A stretch of DNA of 3,240 nucleotides from Escherichia coli. GTDB taxonomy: Bacteria; Pseudomonadota; Gammaproteobacteria; Enterobacterales; Enterobacteriaceae. Made by a program: the position numbers and the translations under genes. This document shows, one piece after another, positions 301-414 of this stretch. Numbering within the stretch: position 1 is the first letter of the stretch; every line of letters starts with the position of its first letter. Under the pieces are notes generated by a model. That model worked only from the letters and a program-made list of their open reading frames with translations. It had not been told where the DNA came from and did not search any database. The stretch lies in assembly GCF_003334255.1 (NCBI RefSeq), contig NZ_QOWU01000124.1; one strand, written 5' to 3'.

Positions 301-390
301 CTTAACGGGATGTGTACATAAATGGGTACGGATATGACGATTATTTTGGTGCTTTCTGTATTTAAATCAATTAGTTAATACTTGTATTCA

Positions 391-414
391 TTATATCCAT
401 TTAACTAAGAGGAC
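391..414 (-). pseudogene. argW: tRNA-Arg(CCU) argW, 5' fragment only (acceptor-stem 5' strand plus D arm); gene truncated after about nt 24
   Basis: The minus-strand sequence 414->391 is GTCCTCTTAGTTAAATGGATATAA, matching the first 24 nt of E. coli argW as I recall it. It forms a canonical 7-nt acceptor strand, a TA linker and a D-stem GTTA/TAA with an AATGGATA loop. No anticodon arm, T-arm (GGTTCGATTCC) or 3' acceptor complement (AGAGGAC-N-CCA) occurs downstream or anywhere else in the window. Its position just downstream of yfdC matches K-12 synteny. Confidence 0.7.

Follow-up and report, generated by a model that had tools for sequence, protein, structure and literature searches.

The argW fragment beside yfdC in Escherichia coli is the attR core of a Stx-type prophage, and its 8-bp inverted repeat is probably incidental

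The stretch of DNA considered here (hereafter, the window) is 3240 nt long and corresponds to the yfdF-mlaA-yfdC-argW region of E. coli, with phage DNA at its left end. The features of this region on which the argument depends are the following, in the order of their coordinates:

1–268, plus strand: 3' end of the last gene of the phage late region, which encodes a giant LPD38/LPD5 domain-containing protein (RefSeq annotation, with the stop of the open reading frame at 268); the prophage terminates here on its right side.
269–390, no strand assigned: P' arm, i.e., the phage DNA that separates the core from the last gene (in a four-way alignment, 300–390 is like the attP of the free phage contig L005 and unlike the attB of K-12).
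273–300, no strand assigned: GC-rich, terminator-like hairpin (CATGCCCCG ... CGGGGCATG; CATGCCCCGTACGGAAGTGCGGGGCATG), with inverted 8-mers at 273/293 and 274/292 (repeat I1 in attP).
310–329, plus strand: candidate arm-type integrase sites, ATGTGTACATA (310–320) and GGGTAC (324–329), belonging to the direct-repeat families D4 and D9.
365–377, plus strand: match to the IHF consensus, AATCAATTAGTTA (consensus WATCAANNNNTTR), which overlaps the left arm of the inverted repeat and lies 14–26 nt from the core.
371–378, plus strand: left arm of the inverted repeat, TTAGTTAA, in phage DNA (P' arm).
391–414, minus strand: att core, i.e., nucleotides 1–24 of argW (tRNA-Arg CCU), the copy left at attR (argW prefix match, GenBank annotation and four-way alignment).
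401–408, plus strand: right arm of the inverted repeat, TTAACTAA, the opposite strand of tRNA positions 7–14, as counted from the 5' end of argW at 414.
415–489, minus strand: bacterial arm (B), i.e., the native upstream region of argW and the 3' flank of yfdC, now cut off from the body of the tRNA and identical to the K-12 attB.
490–1422, minus strand: yfdC, of the formate/nitrite transporter family, in the chromosomal flank (open reading frame and annotation).
1716–2471, plus strand: mlaA (vacJ), in the chromosomal flank (open reading frame and annotation).

The hairpin at 273–300 lies directly past the stop of the giant LPD38 gene and is kept in all the relatives, including phage 86; it was not called by the terminator scan because it has no T-run on the plus strand; on the minus strand, it is followed by a stretch rich in T. 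A perfect hairpin with flanking A- and T-runs (AAAAAAGGTGAGT...ACTCACCTTTTTT) is found further along, at 2481–2513, between the convergent mlaA and yfdF genes, where it looks like a bidirectional intrinsic terminator. The last 76 nt of the window (3165–3240) are IS1 terminal sequence (GGTGATGCTGCCAACTTACTGATTTAGTG...) inserted into yfdF. It is at this IS1 end, at around 3165, that the window diverges from SCU-104, and the yfdF/IS1 junction was not found as one contiguous match among the complete E. coli genomes in the collection. A promoter scan of the window between 250 and 520 gave nothing above the threshold.

The reverse complement of 391–414, GTCCTCTTAGTTAAATGGATATAA, constitutes the first 24 nt of the E. 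coli argW gene, the anticodon of which is CCU. Since 391–414, on the minus strand, is the longest argW prefix in the window, the breakpoint of the gene had been correctly placed at 390/391 by the first-pass annotation, which was made from the sequence alone. Apart from this prefix, the window contains no argW sequence of at least 10 nt, and ARAGORN found no complete tRNA cloverleaf in it.

The nature of this fragment emerges from a four-way alignment of the window (attR), K-12 (attB), the free phage contig L005 (attP), and SCU-104 (attL). In this alignment, attR combines the left side of attP, the core, and the right side of attB; attL shows the opposite combination. attP and attB are identical over 24–25 bp, and in some attP variants the identity reaches one base further, to 415. 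In K-12, where attB is unoccupied, the 5' part of argW is uninterrupted; the P'-core-P arrangement of attP is present in the phage contigs L005 and L014 and in the circular record of phage 86. Over 1–520, SCU-104 does not differ from the window; it carries one copy of the core at the yfdC end, as in the window, and another inside an intact argW at the int end; this intact tRNA-Arg(CCT) gene is located between a tyrosine recombinase gene and dsdC, around 62 kb from the junction seen in the window. Similarly, in the GenBank record LC645445, each end of the prophage bears a 24-bp repeat_region described as a 'duplication due to insertion'; at its other end, the core is followed on one side by the rest of argW and is bordered on the other by the P arm and an integrase gene that reads away from the tRNA. 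The sequence features of a prophage attachment junction were found for this locus: a direct-repeat core at both ends, an adjoining integrase gene, an attP that equals the joined ends, and an empty attB.

The equivalent of 391–414 is labelled 'attR' in the GenBank records of such phages, and a strain named WG5::PA8 carries the argW junction. A preprint gives the att of the argW prophage as 24 bp and reports K-12 lysogens of Stx2a phages (10.1101/2024.03.06.583675). The 24-bp argW att is, in other words, already described in public records and in one preprint, and the junction itself is known and ordinary.

The context of the fragment is the attR junction of a prophage of around 62 kb that belongs to the Sepvirinae (933W/PA2-like, Stx-type) and that was inserted by a tyrosine integrase. 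Positions 1–420 of the window match 190 phage records, most of which are Stx-converting Sepvirinae; the record of phage GER2 matches over the same 420 positions and loses collinearity further on. The LPD38/LPD5 annotation lies under the match in at least 30 genomes among those listed, as well as in L002. The integrase at the other end of the prophage is encoded by an open reading frame of 389 aa, located around 195 nt from the rebuilt argW, and has the Pfam domains Arm-DNA-bind_3 (E 7e-17) and Phage_integrase (E 4e-17), a combination that identifies it as a P4-like heterobivalent tyrosine recombinase.

Such a P4-like integrase would recombine attP with attB inside the 24–25 bp of identity, which correspond to tRNA nucleotides 1–24. 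Integration leaves one copy of the core beside yfdC, without the remainder of the tRNA, which is the copy in the window, and a complete argW is rebuilt at the integrase end, around 62 kb away, from a phage-borne 5' part and a chromosomal 3' part. The probable place of strand exchange is the D-loop segment (positions 14–21), with the short D-stem dyad GTTA/TAA(C) on either side; this position fits the core geometry of tyrosine recombinases and lies wholly within the identity.

One consequence of integration on the 5' side is that the rebuilt argW has an upstream region supplied by the phage in place of the native one. In the attL of SCU-104 (L034, 17940–18140), this region contains a promoter-like sequence of chance level, TTGATT-18-TATTAT, which ends around 40 nt before the tRNA. 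The native upstream region (415–489) is orphaned and aimed at the 24-nt fragment and the end of the prophage. In the attR of E. coli 2013C_3964 (L027), the core has undergone a point change, TTAACTAAGGGGAC in place of ...AAGAGGAC, which is consistent with an orphan fragment of 24 nt that is free to drift.

The first-pass annotation had also drawn attention to an 8-bp inverted repeat that straddles the breakpoint. TTAGTTAA at 371–378 and TTAACTAA at 401–408 are indeed perfect reverse complements; they are separated by a spacer of 22 nt, each occurs only once in the 3240 nt of the window, and no pairing beyond the 8 bp can be read from the sequence on either side. The right arm is situated, as had been proposed, in the D-arm region of the tRNA and hence inside the core, where it comprises the last base of the acceptor stem, tRNA positions 8–9, the 5' strand of the D-stem, and the first base of the D-loop. 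The origin of the left arm was a matter that the same annotation had left to an alignment of the junction, and this arm does come from incoming DNA: the attP of the free phage genomes L005, L014, and L019 includes it.

How readily would such a repeat arise by chance? When the 24-nt core was kept fixed and the adjacent phage arm was subjected to dinucleotide shuffling (n = 5000), an inverted match between arm and core of 8 bp or more was obtained in 3.0%, 2.5%, and 5.7% of the shuffles for arms of 30, 60, and 100 nt, respectively, a frequency that is nominally uncommon in a test that is post hoc and that concerns AT-rich DNA (17–36% G+C). Chance is therefore not an overwhelming explanation by itself, given that 2.5–6% of the shuffles yield such a match. 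Four further clusters of inverted repeats of at least 8 bp, with loops of up to 40 nt, are present in the 3240-nt window, and the 700-nt attP region contains 14 inverted pairs, five of which are perfect over 8 nt. The hairpin that the repeat might form is not stable: as single-stranded DNA, it has a free energy of −2.2 kcal/mol (z = −0.19 versus shuffles), and in RNA, the 8-bp pairing is absent from the minimum-free-energy fold (z = +1.06). An Rfam search of the window yielded nothing relevant and no tRNA match.

P' arms were gathered from viral and metagenome collections, from phage records, and from genomes of E. coli, and the distinct versions of the last 45 nt of the P' arm were taken as haplotypes, of which there are 11. 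The collections were scanned for the core with any base except G in front of it (HTTATATCCATTTAACTAAGAGGAC); the scan of viral contigs gave four useful loci, that of metagenome contigs gave nine loci, made up of five unrelated tRNA-Arg genes and four useful loci (L011, L012, L014, and L017), and that of genome contigs gave just two unrelated tRNA-Arg genes (from Riesia and from a Lachnospiraceae MAG). In all 11 haplotypes, the core and its distance from the 8-mer are identical. The perfect repeat is present in only two of them; in the other nine, between four and seven of the eight positions are complementary to the core. The variants found at 371–378 in the relatives are TGAGTTAA, TGACTTAA, TTGGTTAA, TGGATTGA, and TGGGTTGA, and the repeat-forming TTAGTTAA is a single substitution away from the commoner TGAGTTAA. 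The complete genomes of Stx2-converting phage 86 and of PA2, VT2phi_272, P27, and phi346, along with strain WG5::PA8, have TGACTTAA or TGGATTGA next to the same core.

A similar picture is obtained from the chromosomes. The argW junction occurs in 209 of 5426 complete E. coli genomes, spread over many serotypes, and in more than 100 phage records. The 209 genomes were counted via the identity classes of a 64-nt query, with one representative fetched per class: eight of these genomes are identical to the window over 351–414 and one more has the second repeat-bearing haplotype, so that the repeat is present in at least nine of the 209, and it was found in none of the sampled representatives of the remaining identity classes. 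An association of the repeat with argW junctions in general does not hold, given its absence from nine of the 11 haplotypes with the same core. Since most of the related phages use the same site without the repeat, it is most likely incidental, and we take it to be, most probably, a coincidence in one minority haplotype of attP. The suspicion that an 8-bp match in AT-rich DNA may be due to chance is the part of the first-pass reading that the evidence favours.

One of the loci from the metagenome scan, on contig LIDZ01004145.1 (L011, 11284–11448), belongs to a different element, near the end of which lies a GtrB-like gene for O-antigen conversion. This element has an identical 24-bp core from the 5' part of argW, a different chromosomal flank, and ATTGTTAA at the position of the left arm. 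Its use of this core indicates that the D-arm site is employed by more than one type of phage and host.

Whereas the repeat is not conserved, the IHF consensus that overlaps it is. The exact match to this consensus (WATCAANNNNTTR) at 365–377 is the sole one in the window, as against 0.21 expected, and an exact match appears in 0.7–1.5% of the shuffles of the arm. It is retained in 10 of the 11 haplotypes, and L011 has two mismatches to it. The variation inside the 8-mer falls on the N positions of the consensus, 372–374, plus an A-to-G change at 377 that remains an R, while the ATCAA block and the TT are constant across the haplotypes except for one C-to-T change (ATTAA) in L001/L026; the haplotypes being few and phylogenetically related, this pattern of substitution is suggestive rather than statistical. 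It is consistent with the left arm of the repeat being the spacer plus the TTR part of a candidate IHF-type bending site in the P' arm, and IHF might bend the P' arm at 365–377, a position analogous to that of H' in lambda. On this reading, the 8-bp repeat does nothing by itself: the right arm is simply the D-arm within the core, and the left arm coincides with the spacer and TTR of the IHF-type site. A GTTAA, or at least a TT.A, is found 12 nt from the core in most of the haplotypes and in the unrelated L011, and this fixed offset suggests that a part of the left arm is under constraint. We attribute this constraint to the IHF-type site; a contact with the integrase could equally explain it.

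Other sites in the arms may be of interest with respect to the integrase. TGYGTACA motifs are repeated in both arms of attP (ATGTGTACATA, ATGCGTACATA, TGTGTACA, and GAGTACAG; window 310–329 and L005 1906–1949), and the families D4 and D9 tie the motif at 310–329 to ATGCGTACATA and TGTGTACA beside int in the P arm. Three copies are located next to int in this arm, and the GGGTAC at 324–329 is a partial copy; in the unrelated L011, a pair of GTAC motifs is situated at the same distance from the core. To judge from their sequence and distribution, the TGYGTACA repeats are candidate arm-type sites for the integrase. An AAATCAA(T) sequence is present three times in attP (L005 1716–1723, 1777–1784, and 1828–1835); two of the copies are inverted and roughly symmetric about the core (repeats I12 and I14), and the third, in the P arm, differs from the IHF consensus at one position.

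Could the repeat nevertheless serve recombination directly? Tyrosine recombinases recognise their cores through inverted half-sites, and core-type sites flank an overlap of 6–8 bp. The two 8-mers might accordingly be a core-type/accessory pair for the integrase, in which a copy of a half-site in the P' arm binds an extra protomer and so aids or biases the intasome. This idea draws on the exactness of the match, which is moderately unlikely to have arisen by chance, on the general mode of core recognition by these enzymes, and on the GTTAA at its fixed 12-nt offset in most haplotypes and in L011. We nonetheless consider it unlikely, for the arms are 22 nt apart rather than the 6–8 nt of a recombination core, the repeat is broken in nine of the 11 haplotypes that share the identical core and site, and the positions that vary are those that an IHF site tolerates. 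Half-sites around a 6–8-bp overlap, conserved among the elements that use the same site, are not what the 8-bp repeat offers: with its 22-nt spacer and a left arm outside the attP/attB identity, it does not fit a core-type pair, for which a better candidate is the D-stem dyad GTTA/TAA(C) that brackets the 8-nt segment of the D-loop in the core. A narrower version of this idea, to which we give a distinctly low probability, is that the change from TGAGTTAA to TTAGTTAA gives the P' arm an exact inverted match to the D-arm half-site. This match would recruit an extra core-binding domain of the integrase, or would compete with IHF, and the efficiency of integration or excision would thereby be adjusted in comparison with the common haplotypes; were this true, the TTAGTTAA haplotype would be a natural attP variant with altered lysogeny dynamics.

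Two explanations do without site-specific recombination at the repeat. In one, the repeat folds into a hairpin, either within a transcript or within single-stranded DNA, and could, for instance, end or process an orphan transcript from the displaced native argW promoter, an idea that is prompted by the native upstream region (415–489) now pointing into the 24-nt fragment and the end of the phage. Neither the energy of the DNA hairpin nor the RNA fold nor the Rfam search described above gives it support, and the stem is not conserved and displays no compensatory changes, the core arm being invariant and the phage arm variable, all of which makes a hairpin very improbable. In the other, which is close to what the first-pass annotation had proposed, an illegitimate or microhomology-based rearrangement truncated argW, with the inverted repeat either serving as its microhomology or remaining as its scar. 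An abrupt stop of argW at 390/391 in a window with no detectable tRNA does look like this. A rearrangement does not, however, account for a junction that is identical base for base in the 209 genomes and more than 100 phage records, for a 24-bp direct repeat at both ends of the prophage with an intact argW as well as the integrase at the opposite end, or for an attP that joins the two ends precisely, and the four-way alignment of the att sites refutes it. Moreover, inverted microhomology would not produce such a junction, and the repeat is not a junction-defining microhomology, because the junction is defined by the 24–25 bp of direct attP/attB identity. The probability that we leave to a rearrangement is close to nil: argW was not truncated by it, and the 24 nt represent an att core that was duplicated in a conservative reaction of the integrase, with the intact gene at the other end of the prophage. 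The term 'remnant recombination site', which had also been put forward, applies loosely to 391–414, insofar as this is the core of a site-specific recombination.

Taken jointly, these results make it very probable that positions 269–489 of the window are a Sepvirinae attR in the 5' part of argW, with argW rebuilt at the int end and with a repeat that has no role.

Among known systems, the closest are the short-tailed Stx phages integrated in argW (PA2, VT2phi_272, ArgO145, phage 86, and the Stx2a phages of O145:H28 and O157:H7), which have the same 24-bp core and chromosomal flank and a P' arm that is 80–100% identical. Nothing essential separates the window from these phages, other than that it represents a minority haplotype of the P' arm with TTAGTTAA. 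In attP sites of the lambda type, the integrase is likewise heterobivalent, with an arm-binding domain, and the resemblance here extends to an IHF consensus near the core in the P' arm and to TGYGTACA motifs in both arms. The differences from lambda are that the integrase is P4-like and not lambda Int, that the core is inside a tRNA gene, and that the protein-binding sites are predicted ones.

The same gene, argW, is the attachment locus of CPS-53/KplE1 (IntS) in E. coli K-12. CPS-53 begins at the 3' end of argW (from 2370, the gene being at 2310–2384 in L036), with intS downstream in the same orientation, whereas the Stx-type element uses argW nucleotides 1–24 and sits upstream of the tRNA body. 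A counterpart to the latter arrangement has been described in Klebsiella, where islands are found upstream of an Arg tDNA and where the recombination site comprises the 5' acceptor half together with D-stem and D-loop (10.1101/2020.11.02.365908). In particular, the clade I.d integrases at arg2 of Klebsiella pneumoniae have this D-loop/5'-side sublocation, and they share with the present system an element upstream of the tRNA body and the divergence of int and the tRNA (10.1101/2020.11.02.365908); the host and the type of element are different, and the likeness is based on the site and not on the integrase clade. Within tRNA genes, anticodon loop, T-loop, and 3' end count as the classical sublocations (quoted in 10.1101/2020.11.02.365908), which makes the 5'/D-loop site a less common arrangement.

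The main value of these findings is for annotation: the 24-nt piece of argW beside yfdC is neither a damaged tRNA gene nor a scar but the leftover copy of an attachment core. Two by-products follow, namely a description of attP at the level of bases for an argW-specific integrase (a 24–25-bp core in the D-arm, a conserved IHF-consensus site 14–26 nt from it, and candidate TGYGTACA arm sites) and a reminder of the uncommon 5'/D-loop sublocation that this integrase uses. Finally, argW occupancy serves in the typing of high-virulence O157 and O145 lineages, and the diversity of P'-arm haplotypes could therefore be a marker.
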